A DNA stretch of 64,000 nucleotides. Origin: a virus (taxonomy: Duplodnaviria > Heunggongvirae > Uroviricota > Caudoviricetes). Position 1 is the first letter of the stretch. Every line of letters begins with the position of its first letter. The notes under the pieces are model-generated. The model had not been told where the DNA came from. It saw only the letters and a list, made by a program, of their open reading frames with translations, and did not search any database. The position numbers and the translations under genes are program-made. Shown here one piece after another: positions 3,364-57,897 of the stretch. Location of the stretch: positions 12,984-76,983 of IMG/VR virus record IMGVR_UViG_3300013285_000009. One strand, written 5' to 3'.

Positions 3364-4641
3364 ATGAAAACAATTGTAATAATGCCCGGTGGCTTTCACC
3401 CATTTCATGCAGGTCATGCTGCACTATATCAAAGTGCTGTAAAAGCATTTCCTGGTGCTGATGTATACGTGGCTGCAACTAACGATACGAAAACAAGACC
3501 CTTCCCCTTTGCTATTAAAGAAAAGTTAGCTAAGCTAGCAGGTGTGGCACCTGGTCACTTCATTCAAGTTAAGAGTCCCTTCAAGGCAGAAGAAATCACT
3601 AGTCATTACAATCCTGATGAAGATGTGTTGATCTTTGTTCGTAGTGAGAAAGATAGAACAGAACAGCCTAAACCAGGTGGAATAAAGAAAGACGGCACCC
3701 CGGCTTACTTTCAGCCATACACCGGTAAAGGTATGCAATCGTTTAATAAACATGCATACATGGCTTATCTACCTACTGTAGAGTTTGGTCCTGGCATTAA
3801 AAGCGCAACAGAGATTCGCAATGCTTGGCCCACACTAGATGAACGCCGCAAGACAGCATTAGTTATGAGTTTATATCCAGTAACACAGAAGAATCCTAAG
3901 CTAGCTGCTAACGTAGTTAAGATGTTAGACATGGGCATGGGCGACGGCGGCGATGTTGTGGCAGAAGGTGCAGAAGAAGCATTGCAGTATGCTACTCAAG
4001 CACATGCCGGACAAACTAGATCCGGTGGTGAACCATATATTACCCATCCAATGCGTGTTGCTGATTCTATTAAACAATATAAGCAGTCACATAACCTAGA
4101 TGCTATTATTAGTGCTGCATTATTGCACGATACAGTTGAAGACACTGATACCACACATGAAGCATTACATGATCTGTTTGGTGGATTAGTTGCGTCATTG
4201 GTACAAGAACTTACTAGCAATCCTGAAGAAATCAAACGAGTGGGCAAGGCGGCTTACCTAGCACACAAAATGGCTGCAATGAGTAGCTATGCACTTGTGA
4301 TTAAACTTGCTGATAGATTGGATAATGTACAAGATATTGCAACTGCTAAGACTCCGCAGTGGAGAGCTAAGTATGCAGCAGAAACTAATCAAATTTTAAA
4401 CTACATTGAAAAAACTCGCGCATTGACCGGAACACATAGCAAATTGATTAGTTTGATTCGCGCCAAGTTGGCAGAAATTGATCATCCGCAGCAGGATGTG
4501 GCCGAGAATCTTGGATTAAACTATCCGGGTACATATGAACAAGAGCATGGTTCTGCAAATAATAAATCTTCTCGACACATAGTAAATATGACTACCGAAA
4601 GCAATGTAACCGAAAGTACTGATTATCTGTCGGAAAAATAA
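3364..4641 (+). CDS. fusion protein: N-terminal NMNAT/cytidylyltransferase-like (HxGH) domain plus C-terminal RelA/SpoT-type HD (p)ppGpp-hydrolase domain
   Basis: N-terminus MPGGFHPFHAGH resembles the NadM/NatV motif FQPFHTAH at 53207-54226; C-terminus has HAGQTRSGGEPYITHP, AALLHDTVEDT and KLADRLDN, the SpoT/Mesh1 hydrolase signature. Confidence 0.7.
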   Translation: MKTIVIMPGGFHPFHAGHAALYQSAVKAFPGADVYVAATNDTKTRPFPFAIKEKLAKLAGVAPGHFIQVKSPFKAEEITSHYNPDEDVLIFVRSEKDRTEQPKPGGIKKDGTPAYFQPYTGKGMQSFNKHAYMAYLPTVEFGPGIKSATEIRNAWPTLDERRKTALVMSLYPVTQKNPKLAANVVKMLDMGMGDGGDVVAEGAEEALQYATQAHAGQTRSGGEPYITHPMRVADSIKQYKQSHNLDAIISAALLHDTVEDTDTTHEALHDLFGGLVASLVQELTSNPEEIKRVGKAAYLAHKMAAMSSYALVIKLADRLDNVQDIATAKTPQWRAKYAAETNQILNYIEKTRALTGTHSKLISLIRAKLAEIDHPQQDVAENLGLNYPGTYEQEHGSANNKSSRHIVNMTTESNVTESTDYLSEK

Positions 4642-5672: not shown

Positions 5673-6911
5673 ATGAACTCCAAAGAATTAAACTCGTTTA
5701 GACTATCAGATGCTGTGACTTTTCATGATGAATTAAACCCTAAACTATTTCGTGGACAGAATCTTCAACCTAATATTGATAAGCAACTAATTGAAATTGC
5801 CAATGACTTTTTAGAAGAATTGGGAATTGACGGATTGAAAGTAGAAGATATAACCATCTCCGGTAGTAACGCAGCTTACAGCTATACAGATCATAGTGAT
5901 TTGGATTTGCACATTCTAGTTGATATGTCCAAGCTACCAAACGATGAAGTATACTGTGAATTGTTTGATGCTAAGAAAACGATTTACAATGAAAATCATG
6001 ACATCTTTTTAAACAAAATCCCGGTAGAATTGTACATACAAGATACAAATGACCCGGTAACTAGTGTCGGTGAGTACAGTGTATTGCACAACAAATGGAT
6101 TAAAATTCCATCAAAACGTCGAGCAAATTTTGATCAGAATGCATCAAGTGCCAAGTACGAAAAGCTTGATAAACTAATTAAATTAGGTTTAAAATCAAAT
6201 GACTTGAAGAAAGTCATTACTCTGATAAAAACACTGCATCGTTATAGACAAGCAGGATTAGATAAAGGTGGTGAGTTTTCTCCTGAGAATTTAGTTTACA
6301 AAGCGTTACGAACTCACGGATTGATCACTAAGTTATATGATCTTAGGAACAAGTTACACAGCAAGCGATTGAGTATTGAGGGTCAATACTCGCAACTTAG
6401 TGAGACAAGGTCATCTCTTCCTGAAGTATTATACCATGTAACTCCGGCAAAAAATCTAAGAAGTATTATGCGTCAAGGACTTGTACCCGGCATAGGTGGA
6501 AGATCATCTCAAGTATACGGTGAACAATCCGGCATTTACTGTTTTCCTAGTAAAGAAGATGTTGAAAATGCGCTAATGAATTGGTTGGGCGATCAGTTTG
6601 ATGAAGACGAACAGTTAGCATTACTTGCCATTGATTCTACTGGTCTGAGTGGTGCTTATACTCCCGGTGCAGAATATGAAGTAGTAATCACCTCATCAAT
6701 TCCAGTAGGTAATATAAGAGTCGAATCAAAAGATATCGACACTATTTTTGAGTGTGCCAGCGGGTACATTCCAAGTAACGCAGAAAAGAACGATCCTAGA
6801 TTTGTTAAAGCGTTATCAATAGATGTTAATCCGTATACTATGCAGAAAAATGCCAAGAAATTCGGTTGGAAAATATCACGAGCCGGCATTCCGCCCCTAC
6901 TACGCTCATAG
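5673..6911 (+). CDS. Pol-beta-type nucleotidyltransferase fused to a C-terminal ART-fold (Tpt1/KptA- or DarT-like) domain
   Basis: N-terminus ISGSNAAYSYTDHSDLDLHILVD (GS..D.D NTase motif); C-terminus LYHVTPAKNLRSIMRQGLVPG..IYCFPS resembles the LYH[GF]T..L.SI...GL opening of Tpt1/KptA and DarT. Confidence 0.5.
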   Translation: MNSKELNSFRLSDAVTFHDELNPKLFRGQNLQPNIDKQLIEIANDFLEELGIDGLKVEDITISGSNAAYSYTDHSDLDLHILVDMSKLPNDEVYCELFDAKKTIYNENHDIFLNKIPVELYIQDTNDPVTSVGEYSVLHNKWIKIPSKRRANFDQNASSAKYEKLDKLIKLGLKSNDLKKVITLIKTLHRYRQAGLDKGGEFSPENLVYKALRTHGLITKLYDLRNKLHSKRLSIEGQYSQLSETRSSLPEVLYHVTPAKNLRSIMRQGLVPGIGGRSSQVYGEQSGIYCFPSKEDVENALMNWLGDQFDEDEQLALLAIDSTGLSGAYTPGAEYEVVITSSIPVGNIRVESKDIDTIFECASGYIPSNAEKNDPRFVKALSIDVNPYTMQKNAKKFGWKISRAGIPPLLRS

Positions 6912-46756: not shown

Positions 46757-47596
46757 CTAGATATCCAAAAACTTCAATTCAAACACATCAGCTTGTTCGT
46801 CGTGGCCTGCATAACCACGGGGGTTGCAAACCACGCGGGTCTCACCAACCATGTAGTCGAACGGATCATGGGTGTGACCATGCGTCCATAGTTTGATCTG
46901 AGGGCGATCCATAATGAATTCGCTCAAGTCACTACGATAGCCACCGTTCATCAAATACTGGTCTGCATACCGTTCATGGGTACTACCATATGTAGGACAG
47001 TGATGCCCAACGATAACACACTTCTGGTCTTTACGATCGGCTAGCACAATATCAAAGTATTGAACCGTTTTACGATGACGGCTCATGATGTGAGCAGGCC
47101 GTAACTTAGTAAACCCCAGATCATCATTGCGGATGATACGGAAGTCATTCATCATATCAGTCAATGCATGAAGTGTCAGTGGATCACCTTTGTTACAGTC
47201 AGTCCATAGTGTGGCACCGATGAAGGTAAAGTCATTGATGACCTTAAGGTCATTTTCAAGATAATACACGTTAGGGAACTTGGCACATTCGTCACGCAGG
47301 TGTTGAATGCTTGCGGTCCATCGCCCGTGGTAGAATTCGTGATTACCGGCGACATACACTACGTGCGGAAACTGAAAGCTACACCGTTTCAGAAAGTCAC
47401 GAAATTTCTGCGCACGAGCTTGTCCGTGCTGCAGGGCTTTGATTTCCAAATGACTGTAGTTTGTTTCAGGGTGAGAGTGCAAATCTTCGGCGATAAAGAT
47501 ATCACCGGATAGAATCAATACTTCGGCGCCTTCAGTATTTTGAAGGTTAATATCTTGAAATTCAAGATGGAGATCCGACGCTAGCGCAACTTTCAT
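46757..47596 (-). CDS. calcineurin-like metallophosphoesterase
   Basis: DLHLEF, ILSGDIF, VAGNHEF, GHHCP, THGHTH motifs. Confidence 0.7.
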   Translation of the reverse strand: MKVALASDLHLEFQDINLQNTEGAEVLILSGDIFIAEDLHSHPETNYSHLEIKALQHGQARAQKFRDFLKRCSFQFPHVVYVAGNHEFYHGRWTASIQHLRDECAKFPNVYYLENDLKVINDFTFIGATLWTDCNKGDPLTLHALTDMMNDFRIIRNDDLGFTKLRPAHIMSRHRKTVQYFDIVLADRKDQKCVIVGHHCPTYGSTHERYADQYLMNGGYRSDLSEFIMDRPQIKLWTHGHTHDPFDYMVGETRVVCNPRGYAGHDEQADVFELKFLDI

Positions 47597-49538: not shown

Positions 49539-49769
49539 TTAATATTCTTTTTTGTCGCCGGCTTCTTCGTTGTAGTCATAACCTTCGTGATACAGTTCAA
49601 TTTCGTCCGGGCTCATAAGACTGATACCAATGTACGGACCGCTATCACCACCGACTCCGCCTAAGTGTGGATTGCGCGCCCGGCCATAGTAGCTGTCAGC
49701 AGATCCTCGATCAAATGCATTACCATGTTCGACTTTGAAAGTGCGACCGTTGTGTGTTGCTGTATACAT
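49539..49769 (-). CDS. hypothetical Gly/Tyr-rich protein
   Basis: 76 aa; directly downstream of the minus-strand family promoter 49803-49831. Confidence 0.45.
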   Translation of the reverse strand: MYTATHNGRTFKVEHGNAFDRGSADSYYGRARNPHLGGVGGDSGPYIGISLMSPDEIELYHEGYDYNEEAGDKKEY

Positions 49770-49802
49770 AATCTAACCCTACTTGTTGCTGTTTAAGATT
49801 CT

Positions 49803-49831
49803 ATTATACACCCAAAACCATTTAATGTCAA
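49803..49831 (-). promoter_or_regulatory. family promoter, minus orientation
   Basis: reverse complement GCTTGACATTAAATGGTTTTGGGTGTATAAT plus leader AGAATCTTAAACAGCAACAAGTAGGG. Confidence 0.65.
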
Positions 49832-50073
49832 GCAATATTCAGTTGAACTTGCAGACCTTCCCAGGTGCCACCGAGTCCGCTAGTACATTGATCGGCTGCG
49901 CCGATACCAGAGCGGATGCCTTCAAGTGCATCCAAAGCCTTTTGGGTAGCAGCATTGCACTTCATAAAGTCGCCGACGCCATTGCGAATCTGTTTTACAG
50001 TAGCATAGAAACATGCTTGACCAACGATAACACGGAATTTTTGAGTCTGTTTGAAACGCTTGATAACTAACAT
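49828..50073 (-). CDS. hypothetical protein (81 aa)
   Basis: start reset to the Met after promoter 50104-50132; ORF-track N-terminal extension reads through the promoter. Confidence 0.45.
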   Translation of the reverse strand: MLVIKRFKQTQKFRVIVGQACFYATVKQIRNGVGDFMKCNAATQKALDALEGIRSGIGAADQCTSGLGGTWEGLQVQLNIA

Positions 50074-50103
50074 GTTGCTGTCCTTTTTGCTGTTTAAGAG
50101 TCT

Positions 50104-50132
50104 ATTATACACCCAAAACCAATTAATGTCAA
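50104..50132 (-). promoter_or_regulatory. family promoter, minus orientation
   Basis: reverse complement GCTTGACATTAATTGGTTTTGGGTGTATAAT. Confidence 0.65.
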
Positions 50133-50428
50133 GCGATTTCTGCGAGGATCCGATTGTAAACATCAGCCTTAGCCATGTAATATTCGTAATCACGTTCGCC
50201 AGGACGAAAGTTTTTCCACTGATTCTGACCTGCATATGACAGGATATCTTGCTCCAAAGTACCATCAGAATAGGTGGAGATGAAACCGTATATGTCATAG
50301 TGTGCAATGAAGCCGTTGCACAGATACAAAAAGTTGTAACCAGTCTTGCTTAGGTTGTCAATGTTTTTGACTGCCTTAACCACGTTATTGACAATGAGAG
50401 TTTTCTGACGTTCAGTGAGTGCTTGCAT
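50129..50428 (-). CDS. hypothetical protein
   Basis: 99 aa. Confidence 0.45.
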   Translation of the reverse strand: MQALTERQKTLIVNNVVKAVKNIDNLSKTGYNFLYLCNGFIAHYDIYGFISTYSDGTLEQDILSYAGQNQWKNFRPGERDYEYYMAKADVYNRILAEIA

Positions 50429-50460
50429 TTTAAGTCCTAGTTGTTGCTGCCTATGAGTCT

Positions 50461-50489
50461 ATTATACACCCAAAACGATTTAATGTCAA
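50461..50489 (-). promoter_or_regulatory. family promoter, minus orientation
   Basis: reverse complement GGTTGACATTAAATCGTTTTGGGTGTATAAT plus leader AGACTCATAGGCAGCAACAACTAGGA. Confidence 0.65.
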
Positions 50490-50491
50490 CC

Positions 50492-50722
50492 TTAGGACCA
50501 GCGCAGTGCAAACACCATGGCATCTTTATGCTTGTTAAATTTGAAGTTAACATCTTGGTAACCCAACCGATGCGTCCATCCTGCCTTGGCATTCTTATTA
50601 CACCACACTTTCATAGCGTATATATCGTCATCCCATCCCCAAATAGTGCCGGTTGTCGGCCTCTTCAATTCAATTGAATGCGGGTGATTTCTCTCAGCTT
50701 GTCGCCGTTGCTTGCTGTTCAT
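50492..50722 (-). CDS. hypothetical protein
   Basis: 76 aa. Confidence 0.4.
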   Translation of the reverse strand: MNSKQRRQAERNHPHSIELKRPTTGTIWGWDDDIYAMKVWCNKNAKAGWTHRLGYQDVNFKFNKHKDAMVFALRWS

Positions 50723-51141
50723 ACAAGTTCCGATGGATAAAACATTGTTACAACTTTGTCTCTCTTCACTGCATAATCATGCGTGTACCATGTACCGCCC
50801 CTTGGTTGCCAAGTCATTTGTAGCGGTACTACAAGCAGGGAATCAGTACTATCCACGATAGCCCTATCACGTTGCAAGTAACCGGCTGGCTCACGTACCT
50901 CGTCGCCACCAAAGAAACCTTGTTGCTCAGTTGACTTAGGAGGATGACATACAATAATGTAACCTATTTCCTTAGCAATAGCAGCAGCCTCAACATCAAC
51001 ACCCCTGCAGTCACCGTGATGCAATTCCGGAGTGATGTTGTCTAACTGACACATGATCATTATACCGTTCAGAACGGCCTGAACTTCATTAGCTTGGTAA
51101 GGAGTCATGCCTTCACGTGTACCAGTGACACCGATCTTCAT
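50719..51141 (-). CDS. DUF2493/SLOG-family protein (YspA-like nucleotide-binding Rossmannoid)
   Basis: KIGVTGTRE..HHGDCRGVDVEAAAIAKEIGY..QRDRAIV..GGTWYT matches the GTGxR / GGxxGxD / RN / GGT pattern. Confidence 0.5.
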   Translation of the reverse strand: MKIGVTGTREGMTPYQANEVQAVLNGIMIMCQLDNITPELHHGDCRGVDVEAAAIAKEIGYIIVCHPPKSTEQQGFFGGDEVREPAGYLQRDRAIVDSTDSLLVVPLQMTWQPRGGTWYTHDYAVKRDKVVTMFYPSELV

Positions 51142-51719
51142 GCAAATTCTACCAAGGTAACTGAGCCACCCTTTTTACTAACATCTTCGGCAAAGAACTC
51201 AATCATTTGAATGATGGTATCCTTATGTCCACCGGCGAGTCCCATACCAATGTAGGGAAAACCGATTCGTTTGTCACCGTGTACAAACAATAACTTTTCC
51301 AAAATTAATTGAAATGCAGTGTACTCAAATACATCAGTGCCCTGACTCATATTGTATTGAGTGTATGCGTTGATGATGACAAATTTGCCGGTGAATTCGG
51401 TCCAATTGCCTAATTTCATATGGTCGCCGCGTTCGGTAAGTCTATCGATTTCTTGACACATGGGATAGCGTTCGGCAATTTCCCGTGCAATACCGCCTCC
51501 CATGGCACAGAAGCAATTACATCCCTGTACCACGATGTCGAACTCGCCAGCTTCTGCTAAGTCGAGCAAATTACCTTTGGTGTGTTTTAGCATAGAAGTA
51601 TTCATAGGAAAGTCAACGGGGTTATCTGTGTTTGTATAATGCGGCAGAACAACGCCGGCCTCCGCTGCCATTCGTAGTTTATCTGCTACTGTTACAAGTG
51701 TGTCGTTAGCCATTTGCAT
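51138..51719 (-). CDS. macro-domain protein (ADP-ribose binding or processing)
   Basis: FDIVVQGCNCFCAMGGGIAREI and IGFPYIGMGLAGG resemble macro motifs (a)IVNAAN..GGGVxxAI and (a)FPAIStGvyG. Confidence 0.6.
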   Translation of the reverse strand: MQMANDTLVTVADKLRMAAEAGVVLPHYTNTDNPVDFPMNTSMLKHTKGNLLDLAEAGEFDIVVQGCNCFCAMGGGIAREIAERYPMCQEIDRLTERGDHMKLGNWTEFTGKFVIINAYTQYNMSQGTDVFEYTAFQLILEKLLFVHGDKRIGFPYIGMGLAGGHKDTIIQMIEFFAEDVSKKGGSVTLVEFA

Positions 51720-51945
51720 AATCTTTCTTTAAAAGGTTTACTGTATGTTGATGACATTGGTTGATATAGAATTGTGCGACTCTCATCATAGCCTCTGCGT
51801 GTTCGTAGCTAGATGGAAGAACTACACACTCACCTCGGTGCAGTTCGTCTAGTTTAAGTCGGCATTCGTGGTCGGTGTATGGAATCATTTTTCTTTCTCC
51901 ATTTCTGTCACGATATCTTCGGCTTCTTTCAAGCCGCGTTCCCAT
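51706..51945 (-). CDS. hypothetical protein
   Basis: 79 aa. Confidence 0.35.
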   Translation of the reverse strand: MGTRLERSRRYRDRNGERKMIPYTDHECRLKLDELHRGECVVLPSSYEHAEAMMRVAQFYINQCHQHTVNLLKKDYANG

Positions 51946-52448: not shown

Positions 52449-52477
52449 ATTATAGCATAGAAACCATTTTGTGTCAA
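52449..52477 (-). promoter_or_regulatory. family promoter, minus orientation, divergent
   Basis: reverse complement GCATTGACACAAAATGGTTTCTATGCTATAAT. Confidence 0.5.
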
Positions 52478-52523: not shown

Positions 52524-53210
52524 ATGAACTACCCTATTACTCAACTTCACCGGGATAACTTTAAGCCCACTTATCTGTATATCAAGCAGCATACAGAAAC
52601 GGGCAAACTCTATTTTGGAAAAACTACCAAAAAGAATGTTGAGAGGTATACTGGTTCTGGAATACATTGGGGCCGTCATATCAGTGCTCACGGGAAAGAC
52701 AAAGTAGTTACACTTTGGTATTGTTTATACACAGAGATCGAAATTTTAGTTGAAACTGCTTTGGCAATGTCGGCAATAATGGATATAACTGAATCAACTG
52801 ATTGGTTAAACTTTAAGCCAGAATCTGGATTAGATGGCGGCTCGTTTGTTGGGTTCAATGGATGGGCTGGTAAGAAACATTCTCCAGAGCACATCGAAAA
52901 ATTAAGAAAACTCGGAAGAGAACGCCCTGTTACTGAAAATATGCGGAATAGTTTTTTAAAGCGTGATTTTAATGGCGCTAAAAATGGCATGGCATTACAC
53001 ATAGATATTTTCGATGACACTGGATTGCTAAGATTTAAATGCCATGGAAATTTCGAGAAATTATGCATTGAAAATAATCTACCTATGGGACCGCTTAAGA
53101 TTTCGTATGCCAGAGGAGGAAAACCAATTTTTACATCAAAATCCACAGGTAGATTGAAAGATTTATCCATGTTAAAATATAAAAATTGGTTTGCTAAAAT
53201 AGCAGTTTAA
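52524..53210 (+). CDS. GIY-YIG-type homing endonuclease (Seg-like), plus-strand insertion
   Basis: YLYIKQHTETGKLYFGKTTKKNVERYTGSG variant GIY-YIG core; only plus-strand gene in this part of the minus block. Confidence 0.55.
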   Translation: MNYPITQLHRDNFKPTYLYIKQHTETGKLYFGKTTKKNVERYTGSGIHWGRHISAHGKDKVVTLWYCLYTEIEILVETALAMSAIMDITESTDWLNFKPESGLDGGSFVGFNGWAGKKHSPEHIEKLRKLGRERPVTENMRNSFLKRDFNGAKNGMALHIDIFDDTGLLRFKCHGNFEKLCIENNLPMGPLKISYARGGKPIFTSKSTGRLKDLSMLKYKNWFAKIAV

Positions 53211-54226
53211 TTACCAAGGAAGTGGGTCAGGATCTCATAATGATCTTCAAAGCATTCTTCACTACGAACTTCTGCGATAGGAACCCACCGTGCTTTTTCG
53301 GCATCGTCACTGCCTTTTACTTTTGGCAGTTCACCATCGGGCAACTGAATATAAAATGCATGTGTGATGATACGACCACGCGGGCTCCGATCCACAGCAT
53401 CAAATACCTTGCTTCGTACAATAGATCCACGCAACACAGGACCGGGTACTTTGATCAATGTTTCTTCACGCAATTCACGGATAGCAGCATCTTCCACATT
53501 CTTGTCAGTCTGTGCATTTACATAGCCACCGGGCAATGCCCACAATCCCTTACCTGGTTCAGCGCGGCGCTTAATCATCAGCACATGCCCACTTTGGATA
53601 ACAACTGCGTCAGCAGTAACAAAGATTGGAGGATACTTCAAACTAGCGTACTGCTTTGCATTTTCAATCAAGAATTCACGTTCACGGATAATTTGTTCGT
53701 ACTCAGGGGTCTCTTTAAATTGATCCAAGAAGTCAAACGTAGTCTTTGGAACAACGTTCTTAATGAAGTTCATATTTACATCACGTTTGAAATACAAGTT
53801 ACGAATGTCAGTCGCATCCAGTGGCTCCAGCAGTTCAACTTCTTCAAAGCCCCATTGCGGAAACGTATCAAGATAGAAACTTGACGGGTCTTTCTTGTGA
53901 CCAATAATGCCAATCTTTTCGCCAGGGACAGTATGCTTGGCAACTAGTGCTTGCACACGAACAGCCCAGGCTTGGTCATTGTAGATAGTATCGGGATTTG
54001 CTTCCACGTGAATAGACAAGTCAAGTCCGCCAGTGGCATACTTGATCATTTTGTAACGTTCATCAAACGTGAACGGGTTCTTGTAAGTGCGAGGCTGATT
54101 AGCTGACCCGCAAATAAAGATTAGTTTTTTGCAATTTGCAGTGGCACGATGCGCCAAGAGTAAGTGAGCAGTGTGGAACGGTTGAAAACGTCCGATTAGG
54201 ACAAGTGTATCGTATTTTTTAGACAT
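53207..54226 (-). CDS. natV: bifunctional NMN adenylyltransferase / Nudix ADP-ribose pyrophosphatase (NatV/NadM-Nudix)
   Basis: N-terminus LIGRFQPFHTAHLLL (HxGH NMNAT); C-terminal Nudix box GGYVNAQTDKNVEDAAIRELREETL. Confidence 0.85.
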   Translation of the reverse strand: MSKKYDTLVLIGRFQPFHTAHLLLAHRATANCKKLIFICGSANQPRTYKNPFTFDERYKMIKYATGGLDLSIHVEANPDTIYNDQAWAVRVQALVAKHTVPGEKIGIIGHKKDPSSFYLDTFPQWGFEEVELLEPLDATDIRNLYFKRDVNMNFIKNVVPKTTFDFLDQFKETPEYEQIIREREFLIENAKQYASLKYPPIFVTADAVVIQSGHVLMIKRRAEPGKGLWALPGGYVNAQTDKNVEDAAIRELREETLIKVPGPVLRGSIVRSKVFDAVDRSPRGRIITHAFYIQLPDGELPKVKGSDDAEKARWVPIAEVRSEECFEDHYEILTHFLGN

Positions 54227-54227
54227 A

Positions 54228-54554
54228 TTAATAACCTCGAATCAATTTGAATGCAGTGAGAGTAGAAGCAATGTCCAATCCATGTTCGTCACAATGGCAG
54301 ATCATTTTCTGTGCTTTTTTCAAATACTCACTGTGGGCGTGACTTGTCCAGTCGTCTTTTTTGTTTTTGACTTCATAATGCCAACCGCAACCATCTGTGT
54401 GGTTGTGAGTGCAGAGCATACCGTGCAACTCTTTGGCAAGTTGATGATCTGGTGATTCGAGTTTAGCCGCAATCAGTTGGGCTTGCAAGTCTTTGAGACC
54501 TTGCTCATGTTGTTTGATTTGTTCTTCGATAGCGAAGAGAGTTAATTTTGACAT
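54228..54554 (-). CDS. small Cys/His-rich protein
   Basis: 108 aa; CTHNHTDGCGWH..HAHSE..CHCDEHG. Confidence 0.4.
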   Translation of the reverse strand: MSKLTLFAIEEQIKQHEQGLKDLQAQLIAAKLESPDHQLAKELHGMLCTHNHTDGCGWHYEVKNKKDDWTSHAHSEYLKKAQKMICHCDEHGLDIASTLTAFKLIRGY

Positions 54555-54613
54555 TGAAAAATCCTTTCAATTAATGTCAGTAGAAAGTCTATCTCTCTAC
54601 AGTTTATAATTAC

Positions 54614-54642
54614 ATTATAGCATGACCTGTATTAAAAGTCAA
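54614..54642 (-). promoter_or_regulatory. family promoter, minus orientation, divergent
   Basis: reverse complement GCTTGACTTTTAATACAGGTCATGCTATAAT. Confidence 0.5.
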
Positions 54643-54657
54643 GCTATAATTTTTGCA

Positions 54658-55710
54658 TTAAAATGCATCGTAGTTGAAGGTATGTTGCTTGATTCTAGTC
54701 AAAGTCAAGCGTGTACCATTGTCTTCAAACACGAACTTACCGTCCACAGCGCTGATAGAAACCAGTGCCTCAGTGCTGAAAGTCTGACTCTTCCATTCAC
54801 CGTCGTCATTTTCGGGTTCTGGATCAAATCCGACTGAAATGCCCTTTTGTTGCAGAGGATTGCCGTCAAACACACTAGGGTTCACGCCTTCTACATCAAC
54901 ACCATTGAACACAACCTTCACATCGTACTTTGTGCCGCCGTCAAATTCTGGCTTAGCATTAAGCATACGCAATGATTCCTGCGGGCTTTCATTGTAGCGA
55001 TTCATTTCTTCAACCAATGCCTTAAGCATATCAAAGTTGAATTCGGCGAACAAGCTAGCGATAGAGCAAATCTTTTCAATGTGATGCTTTGCATCCAAAT
55101 TGTCATTGCAGTATTCAGTAATGAATTCGGCACCAAGTCCCTTGAAGTCAATCATGTAGTAGATACGACCTGGACGATTGCGCATATGTTGGTCAACACG
55201 CCACTTGTCATTACAAGTCAATGCATACAGTTTCTTAGAACCAAATACACCGTCAAGCAAAGTCAAGATAGATTCTTGTTCGTCACGGTCATACACCTTC
55301 TCGAATTCGTCAAACAGAACCATGCACGGCTGTTCAATGTCTTGCAACAGTTTGTTGAAGTTGTCGCCATGCCATGGGCTATTGATAACGATAGTAGGTA
55401 CACCTTGCTCAGCCAACTCAATAGCGATATTCTTAGCAAGCAATGTTTTACCAGAACCCTTTTCACCGTTCAGCATGATACCGGTTGAAACGGTACGCTC
55501 TGTGAAAGTGCGGATAATACGGTCAGTGTTCTTGAAAGTATCACCGTACAGCTTTGATGGCTTCACAAAACTTTCAATTTGTTCCAGATATAGATTACCA
55601 AACGGATCAGCCTTGATGATGTAATTACCGGCGGGTAATTTTTCATGCAAGTCGAGGGAGTCCTTTGTGGACACTTTGAAGCTAGAACCAGATTTCAGAA
55701 AGTAAGTCAT
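54658..55710 (-). CDS. AAA+ ATPase of unknown function
   Basis: Walker A LNGEKGSGKTLLAKN; Walker B CMVLFDEFEK; about 130-aa N-terminal domain and about 100-aa C-terminal domain. Confidence 0.55.
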   Translation of the reverse strand: MTYFLKSGSSFKVSTKDSLDLHEKLPAGNYIIKADPFGNLYLEQIESFVKPSKLYGDTFKNTDRIIRTFTERTVSTGIMLNGEKGSGKTLLAKNIAIELAEQGVPTIVINSPWHGDNFNKLLQDIEQPCMVLFDEFEKVYDRDEQESILTLLDGVFGSKKLYALTCNDKWRVDQHMRNRPGRIYYMIDFKGLGAEFITEYCNDNLDAKHHIEKICSIASLFAEFNFDMLKALVEEMNRYNESPQESLRMLNAKPEFDGGTKYDVKVVFNGVDVEGVNPSVFDGNPLQQKGISVGFDPEPENDDGEWKSQTFSTEALVSISAVDGKFVFEDNGTRLTLTRIKQHTFNYDAF

Positions 55711-55783: not shown

Positions 55784-57220
55784 TTATTTACGAGCGTTTG
55801 CCCGAACTTCTTCAAAGGTGATTTCTTTTACAAGCACTCCATCACGAAATACTTCATTCAGCACATTAGTCCAACCACCGGTGCCTTTGTCAGTCCATCC
55901 CATTGGCTGAGTTACTGCTGACTGATATTCACCACCTGATTCCCAAAGAGTAACACGACCACGCTTGCTACGCTTACCACTATCAGTGATAGGGTCTTTG
56001 TAAACATCGCGCCACACCAAACTTTTGAAAGGACCGTGATCACGTTCAGTAGAATATTCACGAACACCAATCGCGCTACACTTCATTGCCCACTGCATTG
56101 TGTCACGATCCACACGTTGCAGCAATGCACCACCTTGACCAAACGCCACGTTGTCTGCACTGAATCCTGCAATTTCCATACAGAACAAGATGCTGTGGAT
56201 GCTTGCTTGATCAATACCATCACCTTGGATGATACGCACTGCTGGGTTTAGAACACGATAGCCTTTAGCGTTGACAGTTGAACCAAAGTGTTTTTCAAGA
56301 ATGTACAAACACTTTACAACCACGTCAGAGGGGTTGCCCGAGTCCGGGCGGACGACCAAAGTTGCGCCACTGTCAAGGACGTCTTGTTTAAGGACTGTGC
56401 CCCAGAGTTCACAGGCTTTGTAAATGTCGTAGCTGTCCGAGACGCAAGCGAAGATGCCCCCTGCTTTTGCGTTTTGCTTGACCATGTTGCGGTACGAGTC
56501 AACTTCATTTTCTTTACCCCAAGATGTTACAGTAGAGTGTTCCATAGCTGGAATACTGAACCCAGCAATGCCAGCGTTATAATACTCCCGAGCGTAAAGA
56601 ATGCCCGAAACAGTATCCGACCCCATAAAGTTGACGAGATGGGCAGCGCCGCCAATTGCAGCAGATTCGAGACTAGATACACCACGAGCACCAAAGTCAT
56701 GAAGTTTGAAATCGATAGTAGATGGGTCACCAGTTTTTTCCAATGCAGCAAGAATGATTTTTTTAGATTCGTAGCTGTTAGTTGCTACTGTAGTAGGATA
56801 CCAAATTGCGCGGAGCAATGCAGTTTCTAGGAACGAGGTGAGCCAGAAGCAGTTGGGATCCGTGTTCTCAATAGTTGCCAATACATTTTTAATAGGGACA
56901 AGTGTGCCTTCAGGAACAGCTTTGATAACGACAGGAAGTTTACCTCCGTGTACCCGTAGAATGTATTCCCATCCTTCTCTGTTGAAAGGTTCTCCGTGAG
57001 CAGTGATGATCGCATCAGCAAGATCAATGTCGGCTTGAACGATTGGCTCAATTAGATACTCCTTAATAAATGCTTGTAATCCGAAGAAAACAGTATCATT
57101 CCATTTACCACCGCGTGATTCAATGTATGAATAAACGTATTCAGTACCAGGGGGATACTGATTAAATTGACTGAATTTGTAACTATCCGAATTGAGAATG
57201 ATGTTTTTAAAACTTGACAT
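55784..57220 (-). CDS. nadV: nicotinamide phosphoribosyltransferase (NadV/NAMPT)
   Basis: collinear NAMPT hallmarks: NSDSYKFSQ, IKAVPEGTLVP, TDPNCFWLTSFLET, KLHDFGARGVSS, GGAAHLVNFMGSDT, RPDSGNP, IQGDGID, SGKRSKRGR. Confidence 0.95.
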   Translation of the reverse strand: MSSFKNIILNSDSYKFSQFNQYPPGTEYVYSYIESRGGKWNDTVFFGLQAFIKEYLIEPIVQADIDLADAIITAHGEPFNREGWEYILRVHGGKLPVVIKAVPEGTLVPIKNVLATIENTDPNCFWLTSFLETALLRAIWYPTTVATNSYESKKIILAALEKTGDPSTIDFKLHDFGARGVSSLESAAIGGAAHLVNFMGSDTVSGILYAREYYNAGIAGFSIPAMEHSTVTSWGKENEVDSYRNMVKQNAKAGGIFACVSDSYDIYKACELWGTVLKQDVLDSGATLVVRPDSGNPSDVVVKCLYILEKHFGSTVNAKGYRVLNPAVRIIQGDGIDQASIHSILFCMEIAGFSADNVAFGQGGALLQRVDRDTMQWAMKCSAIGVREYSTERDHGPFKSLVWRDVYKDPITDSGKRSKRGRVTLWESGGEYQSAVTQPMGWTDKGTGGWTNVLNEVFRDGVLVKEITFEEVRANARK

Positions 57221-57467: not shown

Positions 57468-57496
57468 TCTGAATCCCTTTGTCTGTTTAAGTATCT

Positions 57497-57525
57497 ATTA
57501 TAACACCAAACCCATTTAATGTCAA
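57497..57525 (-). promoter_or_regulatory. family promoter, minus orientation
   Basis: reverse complement GGTTGACATTAAATGGGTTTGGTGTTATAAT plus leader AGATACTTAAACAGACAAAGGGA. Confidence 0.6.
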
Positions 57526-57806
57526 CCGACTTGTTTGTCGATGATACGAACCAGATCCTCTACGAATACATCGGATACTTTGGTATCAACTTTGACTTCT
57601 AGATTACGGATACGGAAGAATTCGATATCGTACAGATCAGTTCCTTCATTGTAAATGATGTTGACTTGACCCTTCCAACGAGTCATTCCACTAGATTTGA
57701 ACTGCAATCCCTTGCCTGTGTTGACAAGGTCCTTAGCACCCCAGGCAAACATCGCTCTTGGGTCAAGATTCTTGATTTGGGAGAGAATTACTTGTGCTGT
57801 GTTCAT
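57522..57806 (-). CDS. hypothetical protein
   Basis: 94 aa. Confidence 0.45.
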   Translation of the reverse strand: MNTAQVILSQIKNLDPRAMFAWGAKDLVNTGKGLQFKSSGMTRWKGQVNIIYNEGTDLYDIEFFRIRNLEVKVDTKVSDVFVEDLVRIIDKQVG

Positions 57807-57838
57807 TTGTAGTCCTATTTGTTGCTGTCTATGAGTCT

Positions 57839-57867
57839 ATTATACACCCAAAATGATTTAATGTCAA
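57839..57867 (-). promoter_or_regulatory. family promoter, minus orientation
   Basis: reverse complement GGTTGACATTAAATCATTTTGGGTGTATAAT plus leader AGACTCATAGACAGCAACAAATAGGA. Confidence 0.65.
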
Positions 57868-57873
57868 CCGTAG

Positions 57874-57897
57874 GAAAGCCCCTTTCGGGGCTTTCTT
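57874..57897 (-). terminator. terminator hairpin GAAAGCCCC-TTTC-GGGGCTTTC, immediately 5' (minus sense) of the promoter; third copy of the hairpin-TTCCTACGGTTGACATTAAAT unit
   Basis: seen directly; follows the stop of 57914-58171. Confidence 0.6.

Follow-up and report, generated by a model that had tools for sequence, protein, structure and literature searches.

A large uncultivated phage carries, side by side in its NAD+/ADP-ribose region, a macrodomain gene and a SLOG-fold gene that do not form a conserved module. The two are loosely linked among related phages, and the usual companion of the macro gene is NatV, a gene of NAD+ salvage, rather than SLOG. From the ORFs, folds, family relationships, synteny statistics and precise indel observed here, the overall explanation that we favour, at somewhat better than even odds, is that of two separate accessory genes placed in one early unit, with no obligate two-gene system. 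The locus is one more case of a viral theme known from earlier work and not a new system, macro-SLOG pairing in viruses having been predicted computationally in 2021-2022. Iyer et al. (Viruses 2021, PMC7824862; 2022, PMC9503650) described viral Macro/NADAR-SLOG associations, including fusions and neighbourhoods in the 2022 paper, and predicted a processing or sensing of ADPr derivatives. To this theme the locus adds a distinct macro clade syntenic with NARP2.

Organisation of the macro/SLOG unit

The window, that is the whole stretch of 64,000 nucleotides analysed, comes from a 131.9-kb metagenome contig. The phage is without close relatives in culture, and a megablast search with 3.5 kb around the macro/SLOG locus against 50,697 phage records returned no match. 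Features of the region are collected in Table 1. Both ORFs lie where the initial annotation had placed them, on the minus strand, which it did not give. The NAD+ salvage genes that it mentioned are real as well, and are found about 1.5-6 kb from macro and SLOG. The ART-like domain that it had placed at 5673-6911 yielded only a sub-threshold Tpt1/KptA match (E 0.017, 15.6 bits for a threshold of 26; E 0.12 in the PDB).

Table 1. Features of the macro/SLOG locus and of the neighbouring NAD+ salvage genes, in window coordinates.
Feature	Position	Strand	Remarks
Nicotinamide phosphoribosyltransferase (NadV/NAMPT)	55784..57220	-	NARP2 component; PF18127, PF04095
AAA ATPase	54658..55710	-	between NAMPT and NatV; phrog_2376, E 1.2e-92
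NatV-type bifunctional NMN adenylyltransferase-Nudix	53207..54226	-	NARP2 component
228-aa ORF	52524..53210	+	between NatV and the macro unit; weak homing-endonuclease-like match, phrog_314, E 0.002
Sigma-70 promoter-like site	52449..52477	-	perfect consensus TTGACA-17-TATAAT, 12/12 matches, TG extension
Small ORF, 60 aa	51885..52067	-	upstream within the macro/SLOG unit
Small ORF, 79 aa as longest ORF	51706..51945	-	overlaps the macro start
Macrodomain protein, 193 aa	51138..51719	-	Tk.4/AdfM/Adpp family
SLOG-fold protein, 140 aa	50719..51141	-
76-aa ORF (orf76)	50492..50722	-	final gene of the unit; ATGA overlap with SLOG
Sigma-70 promoter-like site of the following unit	50461..50489	-	perfect consensus

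The macro/SLOG unit is bracketed by two perfect consensus promoter-like sites. The upstream one is probably the start of an early-type unit containing macro and SLOG, and the downstream one belongs to an element of 43-72 nt that is repeated. The unit would be expressed early. The 228-aa ORF of opposite orientation is probably an inserted mobile gene. GC contents of SLOG (0.459), macro (0.436) and orf76 (0.455) are similar, and thus show no sign of a recent foreign origin.

The plus strand reads TCAT at 51138-51141, i.e. ATGA on the coding strand, so that the 4-nt overlap between macro and SLOG is real. Its use as a sign of a special partnership does not hold. The SLOG/orf76 junction (50719-50722) is also ATGA, and among the 95 same-strand neighbour pairs of the window 13 have a 4-nt overlap and 38 an overlap of some length. 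Such junctions are generic in the window, and the overlap is therefore no evidence that macro and SLOG are special partners.

A Tk.4-family macrodomain with a clade-specific glutamine

The macro ORF contains FDIVVQGCNCFCAMGGGIA and RIGFPYIGMGLAGG, the motifs from which a macrodomain had been proposed; neither these motifs nor those of the SLOG ORF are due to chance. The protein has a macro fold (three-layer alpha/beta/alpha) with two glycine-rich ADP-ribose-binding loops, and it matches phrog_335, the Tk.4/AdfM/Adpp family, with a profile E of 3.7e-38. The proposal was thus correct, and the protein is a macrodomain of the TARG1/DarG/Poa1p-like branch. The Pfam Macro model PF01661, which had been named as the check, aligned over nearly its full length (116 of 118 positions, E 0.012), but at 16 bits it stayed below its cut-off of 22; Pfam, NCBIfam and PADLOC searches with the macro and SLOG proteins gave only sub-threshold matches. 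The true start is probably Met3 (51713). The macro core spans residues 43-193 approximately, and a HYTNTxNPxDFP motif is conserved in the extension that precedes it at the N-terminus.

Yeast Poa1p was the best PDB sequence match. T4 Tk.4 is 31% identical to the macro protein over 148 aa (E 2e-17), and the Adpp-type protein of Vibrio phage Athena 30% identical (E 5e-18). Adpp itself, the phosphatase of NARP1-AP, is from Vibrio phage Gary, and was compared through its ortholog in the Adps-macro-Namat operon of Athena, a phage of the same genus used as proxy. Positions invariant across the window clade, T4 and Athena include CNCF, MGxG, KLG, NxYxQ (YTQ in both the window protein and Tk.4) and PxIGxG. 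Gln65 is invariant in the 37 members of the window clade, whereas a His is found at the equivalent position in Poa1p (H23), T4 Tk.4 and Athena; Ala72 aligns with Poa1p S30, the roles of H23 and S30 being deduced solely from the existence of mutant PDB entries. Given these two substitutions, the predicted chemistry may differ from that of both characterised relatives, and the Gln in place of a His kept by all characterised members is a concrete lead on substrate specificity.

It was shown only very recently that Tk.4-family macrodomains act as counter-defence enzymes in phages. T4 Tk.4, or AdfM (anti-DarT factor Macrodomain), is needed against DarTG2 (bioRxiv 10.1101/2025.11.20.689424), a role that rests on genetic evidence in T4 only, and the phage Adpp macrodomain (Thalassavirus type) dephosphorylates ADPR-1''P and counters RES-type NAD+ cleavage (bioRxiv 10.64898/2026.01.28.702374). 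By analogy with these two homologues, the anti-defence role in ADP-ribose processing that had been suggested for the locus gains experimental backing. Like the window protein, Tk.4 is a small standalone macrodomain of an early region, with a Gln at the position of the DarG catalytic Lys. It differs by its lack of the 42-aa N-terminal extension, and its gene lies beside vs and tk, with neither NAD+ salvage genes nor SLOG adjoining. Adpp resembles the window protein as a Poa1p-like macrodomain amid phage NAD+ reconstitution genes; however, it belongs to a NARP1 operon, while the window gene travels with NadV and NatV of NARP2, which does not use ADPR as substrate.

A DarG-type macrodomain, as the initial annotation had considered, is contradicted by the active site. 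In a profile alignment to 5m3i, the PTK of DarG (K80) faces YTQ(121), and this Gln121, invariant in the clade, replaces the catalytic Lys of both DarG and TARG1 (K84). The window macro gene has neither a DarT partner nor the DarG C-terminal domain, and the ORFs flanking on either side gave no match to PADLOC models, DarT included. The NCBIfam DarG model scored 17 bits for a cut-off of 250, and the PADLOC DarG model (E 4e-4) matched over its N-terminal 76 positions only.

A SLOG-fold protein between DUF2493 and DprA

The SLOG ORF contains MKIGVTGTREG, HHGDCRGVD, RDRAIV and PRGGTWYTHDY; the motifs quoted initially as HHGDCRGVD, RDRAIV and GGT are thus present, while the one quoted as GTGTR actually reads GVTGTR. 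The protein has the Rossmannoid fold of SLOG domains, in which a Gly-rich loop follows strand 1 and strands 2-4 are followed by conserved motifs; its AF2 model has a pLDDT of 95. Residues conserved in the family are Q16, H41, H42, G43, C45, G47, D49, H66, P67, P68, R91, G116, T117 and W118, and the protein is one SLOG Rossmannoid domain, whose His/His/Cys/Asp/His/Arg pocket is conserved. Its structural neighbours in BFVD are named DprA-like, YspA/cpYpsA-related SLOG or DUF2493.

The initial assignment to SLOG/DUF2493 stands for the SLOG superfamily. Membership of DUF2493 in the strict sense is less certain: the window protein had no match to PF10686 (DUF2493/YAcAr; curated cut-off 28.2 bits) at E up to 1. 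This model was matched by 25 of 34 close relatives (best E 1.1e-5) and by 19 of 112 diverse ones (best E 6.4e-7), and 19 of the same 112 matched the DprA model PF02481. The family comprises 7101 representative clusters, in the main standalone proteins of 130-160 aa. It is placed between YAcAr/DUF2493-YpsA on one side and DprA on the other, and is among the largest phage protein families still without an experimental function. The window protein resembles the viral YpsA-like/YAcAr SLOGs of Iyer et al. in being a standalone SLOG of a large phage, beside a macrodomain and near NAD+ salvage genes, with a relative fused to NADAR. It differs from them by falling short of PF10686, and its family is equally close to DprA by sequence.

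Several other identities were considered for the SLOG protein and set aside. Aminotransferase/acetylornithine-transaminase matches were short, weak and inconsistent with the fold, and metallo-beta-lactamase matches of the family profile (E 0.07-0.3) were weak and probably spurious. The protein does not correspond to a Thoeris ThsA-type sensor, in which a SLOG fused to a SIR2 or TM effector binds gcADPR, nor to a DprA/ShosA family member, as it has no Pfam match and is a 140-aa single domain as opposed to the multidomain DprA architecture. A pattern-limited scan of 185,579 bacterial and archaeal species genomes found only 3 distant SLOG loci, and no cellular operon context.

The macro gene is linked to NatV, and SLOG is facultative

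Linkage was scored in the 80 closest macro loci and in 80 SLOG loci, which come from related, non-independent metagenomic phages and in which ORFs were called by a simple greedy heuristic. NatV was found about 3.3 kb or less upstream of macro, in the same orientation, in 61 of the 80 macro loci (1.5 kb in the window); one further locus had only a distant NatV homologue, about 4 kb downstream of macro. SLOG was within 5 kb downstream of macro in 7 of the 80, always on the same strand, and was missing from the other 73; it followed macro directly in 3 of 74 loci. Conversely, macro was within about 6 kb of SLOG in 13 of the 80 SLOG loci retrieved, and missing from 67; of the 72 SLOG loci whose upstream sequence reached 600 bp or more, 4 had macro as the immediately preceding gene. 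Elsewhere, the neighbours of SLOG (74 loci) were most often metallophosphoesterase-like (18), Rnl1-type RNA ligase (16) and AAA_33 kinase (9) genes, followed by macro (8), NAMPT (7) and HD (6). Compared to the fusions and neighbourhoods reported by Iyer et al., macro and SLOG are separate genes in the window and their adjacency is often absent. The module that the initial annotation had inferred from this pair is thus largely not co-conserved, and is lacking in the nearest relative as well.

In this relative (L084), the macro protein is 83% identical to that of the window, and its gene is joined directly to the 76-aa gene at an identical ATGA junction: L084 reads GTAGAATTTGC-ATGA-ACAGCAAGCAACG, and the window has the same two flanks with the SLOG ORF between them. 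Since macro runs straight into the orf76 homologue at the same ATGA, SLOG is precisely absent from L084. It is a cassette the size of one gene, present or absent exactly at the macro/orf76 ATGA junction, and such a clean polymorphism at one junction lends itself to natural isogenic comparisons. A macro-SLOG junction with overlapping stop and start nevertheless recurs, as ATGA in L089 and L090, and as TAATG in L052, L060 and L163. The junction is homologous between lineages whose macro proteins share no more than 54-63% identity. The adjacency must therefore be old, and the two genes may cooperate facultatively.

Possible roles of the two genes

We infer that the macro protein most likely removes by hydrolysis a group carried by C-1'' of ADP-ribose. 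A candidate reaction, which is that of Adpp, would be the removal of the phosphate from the ADPR-1''-phosphate that RES-type NADases produce, and the ADP-ribose freed could then be split by the Nudix domain of NatV. Another candidate is cleavage of the bond to thymine in DNA modified by DarT2, the reaction proposed for AdfM. The macro sequence does not discriminate between the two. NARP2 by itself already cancels aRES defence (bioRxiv 10.64898/2026.01.28.702374), and an ADPR-1''P phosphatase beside it is consequently not obviously required. In the phage clade of the window, macro is co-inherited with NadV and NatV, the NAD+ reconstitution genes of NARP2. The most likely ligand of the SLOG protein is a nucleotide or an ADP-ribose-derived small molecule, which the protein may also cleave; it would thereby provide a second, independent counter-defence or nucleotide-processing function.

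Two-gene cooperation is the view of the initial annotation, and we hold it to be unlikely. Macro and SLOG would then be a two-enzyme module destroying Thoeris-type signals or toxic ADPr metabolites, a "division of labour" in the terms of Iyer et al., with SLOG either sensing an immune ADP-ribose-derived signal (cADPR isomers, His-ADPR, N7-cADPR) or cleaving the adenine-ribose N-glycosidic bond, and the macrodomain removing the 1''-linked group. The direct adjacency of the two genes, stop codon overlapping start codon, in three or more lineages, the constant strand of the 7 downstream SLOG genes, one NADAR-SLOG fusion (P0305) and the Macro/NADAR-SLOG fusions and above-chance co-occurrence in DNA viruses reported in the literature all argue for it. 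They are to be weighed against the many loci with one gene of the pair only, the exact absence of SLOG from the closest relative, the lack of any macro-SLOG fusion among the best 150 SLOG family representatives, and the fact that ThsA-type SLOG is a distant structural match relative to YpsA and DprA. A link to NAD+ salvage instead of a strict pair can also be imagined, though we regard it as quite improbable as a whole: the Gln65 macro clade would be a dedicated accessory of NARP2 ("NARP2-AP"), recycling host immune NAD+ breakdown products with an optional SLOG and the NatV Nudix domain. SLOG would be a metal- or Cys/His-dependent enzyme cleaving the N-glycosidic bond in ADPR, cADPR-type signals or AMP, the three activities would turn ADPR-1''P and cADPR isomers into ribose-5-phosphate and AMP, and these products would refuel PRPP-dependent NAD+ rebuilding while immune signals are destroyed. 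If true, this would give a first biochemical function to a very large viral SLOG family (>7000 clusters).

The other two readings detach SLOG from macro. It might be a minimal DprA/ShosA-like ssDNA-binding protein unrelated to ADP-ribose, either a recombination mediator or an orphan antitoxin acting against Shosta (ShosTA) via ssDNA/RecA, which we consider rather unlikely. The family profile does match DprA (E 0.02) and ShosA (E 0.04) in the PDB, within a range of E 0.02-0.05 and over the C-terminal 55 residues, the PADLOC ShosA model matches the window protein at E 0.004, mycobacteriophage homologues are annotated as DprA-like, and the GTR motif after strand 1 is common to ShosA (VGTR). ShosA neutralises ShosT through ssDNA and RecA binding (PMC12961424), and phages offer a precedent for orphan antitoxins (PMC11825919). 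However, every DprA sequence match is sub-threshold, ShosA (308-331 aa) and DprA have extra domains and form dimers on ssDNA whereas the window protein has a single Rossmannoid core, and the distinct His/His/Cys/Asp/His cluster conserved in the latter is not a DprA feature. SLOG could finally be a LOG-like nucleotide N-glycosidase (phosphoribohydrolase) of nucleotide or RNA-end metabolism, releasing ribose-5-phosphate for the PRPP used by NARP2 or working alongside RNA-repair enzymes, a proposal to which we give little credence. Its conserved RDR/RNR and GGTWYTxD motifs would be arranged like those of LOG, and the commonest SLOG neighbours listed above, with NAMPT and the HD hydrolase, would suit such a role. 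SLOG neighbourhoods lie in hyperplastic early regions, though, which makes adjacency weak evidence, and the LOG family model PF03641 was never matched by the SLOG family in Pfam searches of relatives. Most viral SLOG domains, besides, are assigned by Iyer et al. (PMC9503650) to a YpsA-like and not a LOG-like clade.

Small ORFs of the unit

Two small ORFs precede macro in the unit. The one overlapping the macro start was called on the source contig as a 60-aa ORF (51706-51888). The 60-aa ORF further upstream has homologues adjoining macro in several relatives, with 75-78% identity in L084, L098 and L163.

Organisation of the macro and SLOG genes

The window comes from a metagenome contig of 131,875 bp (ENA ERZ27247438 k141_226922). 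The motifs that the initial annotation quoted for a macrodomain and a SLOG protein were found exactly as quoted in two minus-strand ORFs, and the overlap it described was confirmed, the stop codon of the macro ORF and the start codon of the SLOG ORF sharing ATGA. The macro ORF also overlaps its upstream neighbour. Because of the overlaps with flanking ORFs on both sides, the two genes belong to a string of seven closely packed small genes, which is bracketed by perfect sigma-70 consensus sites (TTGACA-17-TATAAT). Judged from its sequence, the string resembles the early-type transcription units typical of large lytic phages. Overlaps between neighbouring genes are common in the window: a simple greedy ORF call gave 4-nt overlaps in 13 of the 95 same-strand neighbour pairs, and overlaps of any length in 38.

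Features discussed in the text (window positions)
Feature	Position	Strand	Remarks
425-aa fusion	3364-4641	+	cytidylyltransferase-like (HIGH) nucleotidyltransferase and HD_4 (RelA/SpoT-type) hydrolase domain
ORF annotated as ART-like	5673-6911	+	residues 15-234 match phrog_36119, E 1.5e-40
Metallophosphoesterase gene	46757-47596	-	phrog_1649, E 1.2e-52; ~3 kb downstream of SLOG
Intergenic repeat, six copies	49789-49831, 50090-50132, 50447-50489, 54600-54642, 57483-57525, 57825-57867
Repeat, 72-nt extension	49768-49839, 50069-50140, 50426-50497, 57804-57875
Sigma-70 sites	52477-52449, 50489-50461	-	bracket the seven-gene string
orf76	50492-50722	-	76 aa; ATGA common to its start and the SLOG stop
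SLOG ORF	50719-51141	-	140 aa
Macro ORF	51138-51719	-	193 aa
Macro Gln121	51357-51359	-
Macro Gln65	51525-51527	-
Macro residues 1-42	51593-51719	-	N-terminal extension
Homing-endonuclease-like ORF	52524-53210	+	228 aa; phrog_314, E 0.002 (weak); between NatV and macro unit
NatV	53207-54226	-	NMNAT-Nudix
108-aa ORF	54228-54554	-	phrog_12218; between NAMPT and NatV
AAA ATPase	54658-55710	-	phrog_2376, E 1.2e-92; between NAMPT and NatV
NAMPT	55784-57220	-	first in minus-strand order

An intergenic repeat of 43-72 nt is present in six copies; compared to a reference copy, four are 86-95% identical and one 60%. Each copy holds a sigma-70-type promoter on the minus strand, with a perfect TTGACA-17-TATAAT in 3 of the 4 copies within the scanned region. 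The repeats look like conserved early promoters of one family in which conservation extends into the flanks, and they give rise to recurring spurious plus-strand 'LLYTQN.LMSS' ORFs.

A NARP2-linked macrodomain of the Tk.4/Adpp family

Assignment of the two proteins to the macro and SLOG domains was correct at the superfamily level. The macro protein matched Pfam Macro end to end below threshold (16 bits, for a cut-off of 22), and PHROG 335 ('phosphatase') with an E value of 3.7e-38; its best PDB sequence match was yeast Poa1p. Homologues were detected by tblastn in 2,420 phage records, among them the tk.4 genes of T4-like phages. T4 Tk.4, now AdfM, is the sole T4 gene required for DarTG2 resistance (bioRxiv 10.1101/2025.11.20.689424), and Adpp of Vibrio phage Gary, a Poa1p-like macrodomain that NARP1 operons encode between Adps and Namat, removes the phosphate from ADPR-1''-phosphate, which aRES NADases produce (bioRxiv 10.64898/2026.01.28.702374). 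The window protein was compared with Tk.4 and with the macro protein of the equivalent Adps-macro-Namat operon of Vibrio phage Athena, which is congeneric with Gary. Identities were 31% and 30% respectively, and 35% between Tk.4 and the Athena protein; CNCF, MGxG, KLG, NxYxQ and PxIGxG are common to all three.

Two glutamines are invariant in the clade of the window macro. Gln121 lies opposite the catalytic lysine K80 of DarG. DarG and TARG1 have a catalytic Lys at this site, whereas Gln is found in T4, Athena and the window clade, that is, in all phage Tk.4-family proteins examined. Strictly speaking, then, none of them is a DarG-type enzyme. At the site of Gln65, in contrast, Poa1p (H23), T4 Tk.4 and the Athena Adpp-type protein have His. 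In the window protein an N-terminal extension, over which AlphaFold confidence is low, bears the conserved motif HYTNT(D/N)NP(I/V)DFP, missing in Tk.4, Athena Adpp and Poa1p; in some relatives a further acidic insert of 20-30 aa (…EEYENLGK) lies behind the motif.

Among the 80 closest IMG/VR macro loci (macro identity 54% to 83%), 61 have, in the same orientation, a NatV-type NMNAT-Nudix gene no more than ~3.3 kb upstream, and one more has only a distant NatV homologue, ~4 kb downstream. NadV and NatV form the NARP2 NAD+ reconstitution pathway (bioRxiv 10.64898/2026.01.28.702374). In the literature on NARP pathways we found the macrodomain described in NARP1 operons and none described in NARP2, so that the NARP2-linked clade is a modest new observation. 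On the best reading, the macro gene encodes a NARP2-linked Tk.4/Adpp-family macrodomain that would act on a 1''-substituted ADP-ribose.

The AAA ATPase and the 108-aa protein may be additional conserved components of the NARP2-type cluster; a similar ATPase adjoins NAMPT in one related locus (L052). The homing-endonuclease-like ORF is probably a mobile endonuclease gene, and in 8 related loci ORFs of a similar family (cluster C8) are found close to SLOG.

Evidence against an obligate macro-SLOG unit

A macro homologue was present within ~6 kb in 13 of 80 fetched IMG/VR SLOG loci; of the 72 loci whose upstream sequence spans 600 bp or more, 4 have it directly adjoining SLOG. Among the closest SLOG relatives with 5.6 kb or more of upstream sequence, the first five (63-67% identity) lack a macro gene in that stretch, and the sixth, L011, has one no nearer than ~5.9 kb upstream. 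Starting from the 80 closest macro loci, SLOG was found within 5 kb in 7, and as the adjoining gene in 3 of the 74 loci that extend far enough downstream. Wherever SLOG was near macro, it lay downstream and in the same orientation.

In the closest relative, L084 (identity 83% for macro, 86% for NatV, 63% for orf76 and 96% for orf99), the orf76 homologue directly follows the macro gene. The junction reads GTAGAATTTGC-ATGA-ACAGCAAGCAACG in L084 and GTAGAATTTGC-ATGA-[SLOG ORF]-ATGA-ACAGCAAGCAACG in the window, meaning that SLOG is an indel of exactly one gene, with the start/stop overlap as its boundary. The ATGA overlaps at both boundaries (compared with L084 5550-5600) suggest that the gene was gained or lost through recombination at the overlapping stop and start codons, or under selection for them. 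The composition of the SLOG gene is unremarkable. The macro-SLOG junction recurs in L089 and L090 (ATGA) and in L052, L060 and L163 (TAATG), lineages in which macro shares only 54-64% identity with the window protein, so that the adjacency is old and was lost many times.

The indel and the low adjacency counts speak against an obligate macro-SLOG unit, the recurring junction and the constant order for some linkage. The ADP-ribose or NAD anti-defence role put forward in the initial annotation is plausible for the macro protein, backed by the experiments on its homologues AdfM and Adpp; the coupled module failed the co-conservation in relatives that the same annotation had named as its test. The SLOG gene would be an optional, independently inherited cassette with a putative nucleotide- or ADPr-related ligand, both genes presumably belonging to a region of early anti-defence and NAD+ genes.

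The SLOG family and its possible ligands

Sequence searches of Pfam, NCBIfam and PDB gave no significant match to the SLOG protein; PHROG 289 ('GTP-binding domain') was matched with E 8e-5 and PADLOC ShosA with E 0.004. The family is nevertheless large, with 942 close homologues in a clustered metagenome database and 7,101 representative clusters at E ≤ 1e-3 in a 50%-identity library; almost all of these are standalone and 130-160 aa long. Only 18 cultured-phage-collection records matched (mycobacteriophages annotated 'DprA-like', and Acinetobacter phage ME3), and a pattern-limited scan of 185,579 species genomes yielded only 3 distant loci. The fold is clear: the AlphaFold model has very high confidence (pLDDT 95, pTM 0.89), and its viral structural neighbours are named DprA-like, YspA/cpYpsA-related SLOG or DUF2493. 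PF10686 (YAcAr) was touched by 25 and cpYpsA by 22 of 34 close relatives; among 112 diverse representatives, YAcAr and the DprA model were touched by 19 each and LDcluster4 by 8. At the sequence level the family falls between clades. With matches split in this way, SLOG superfamily membership is firm and the DUF2493 membership proposed initially is not established.

Q16, G43, C45, G47, D49, P67, R91 and G116 are invariant in the 112 sequences, and H41, H42, H66, P68, T117, W118 and T120 nearly so. Predicted secondary structure would place the conserved residues at the C-terminal strand ends, which form the ligand-binding edge of Rossmannoid folds. The His/His/Cys/Asp/His set suggests, speculatively, catalysis or metal binding.

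Is the SLOG protein likely to handle ADP-ribose? NADAR enzymes undo DarT1 guanine ADP-ribosylation, and in P0305, a 299-aa protein of the representative library, a NADAR domain (PF08719, E 5.5e-24) is fused N-terminally to a SLOG-family member, which links the family to ADP-ribose processing. No macro-SLOG fusion occurred among the top 150 SLOG representatives. Across 74 loci, SLOG neighbours were metallophosphoesterase-like (18), Rnl1-type RNA ligase (16), AAA_33 kinase (9), macro (8), NAMPT (7) and HD hydrolase (6) genes. According to a 2022 survey, viral SLOG domains belong chiefly to a YpsA-like clade, co-occur with Macro, NADAR and Nudix domains above chance, with fusions and neighbourhoods involving Macro and NADAR, and have as their predicted role the sensing or cleavage of cADPR-like signals, and the survey calls them experimentally uncharacterised (Iyer et al. 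2022, PMC9503650); our search of the later literature found no experimental work on a phage SLOG protein. For YpsA, binding of NAD or ADPR is only inferred. ShosA, a DprA-like SLOG protein, acts via ssDNA and RecA (PMC12961424), which keeps alive a possible role of the SLOG protein outside ADPr metabolism. What remains of interest is the Gln65 macro clade and the biochemistry of this very large viral SLOG family.

The ORF annotated as ART-like shows, in its C-terminal part (LYHVTPAKNLRSIMRQGLVPG…), only sub-threshold similarity to Tpt1/KptA RNA 2'-phosphotransferases (Pfam E 0.017; PDB E 0.12); an ART fold is possible. Metallophosphoesterase-like genes, possibly unrelated to the one in the window, are the commonest immediate SLOG neighbours in other phages, and HD_4 proteins (cluster C13) are recurrent neighbours there as well.
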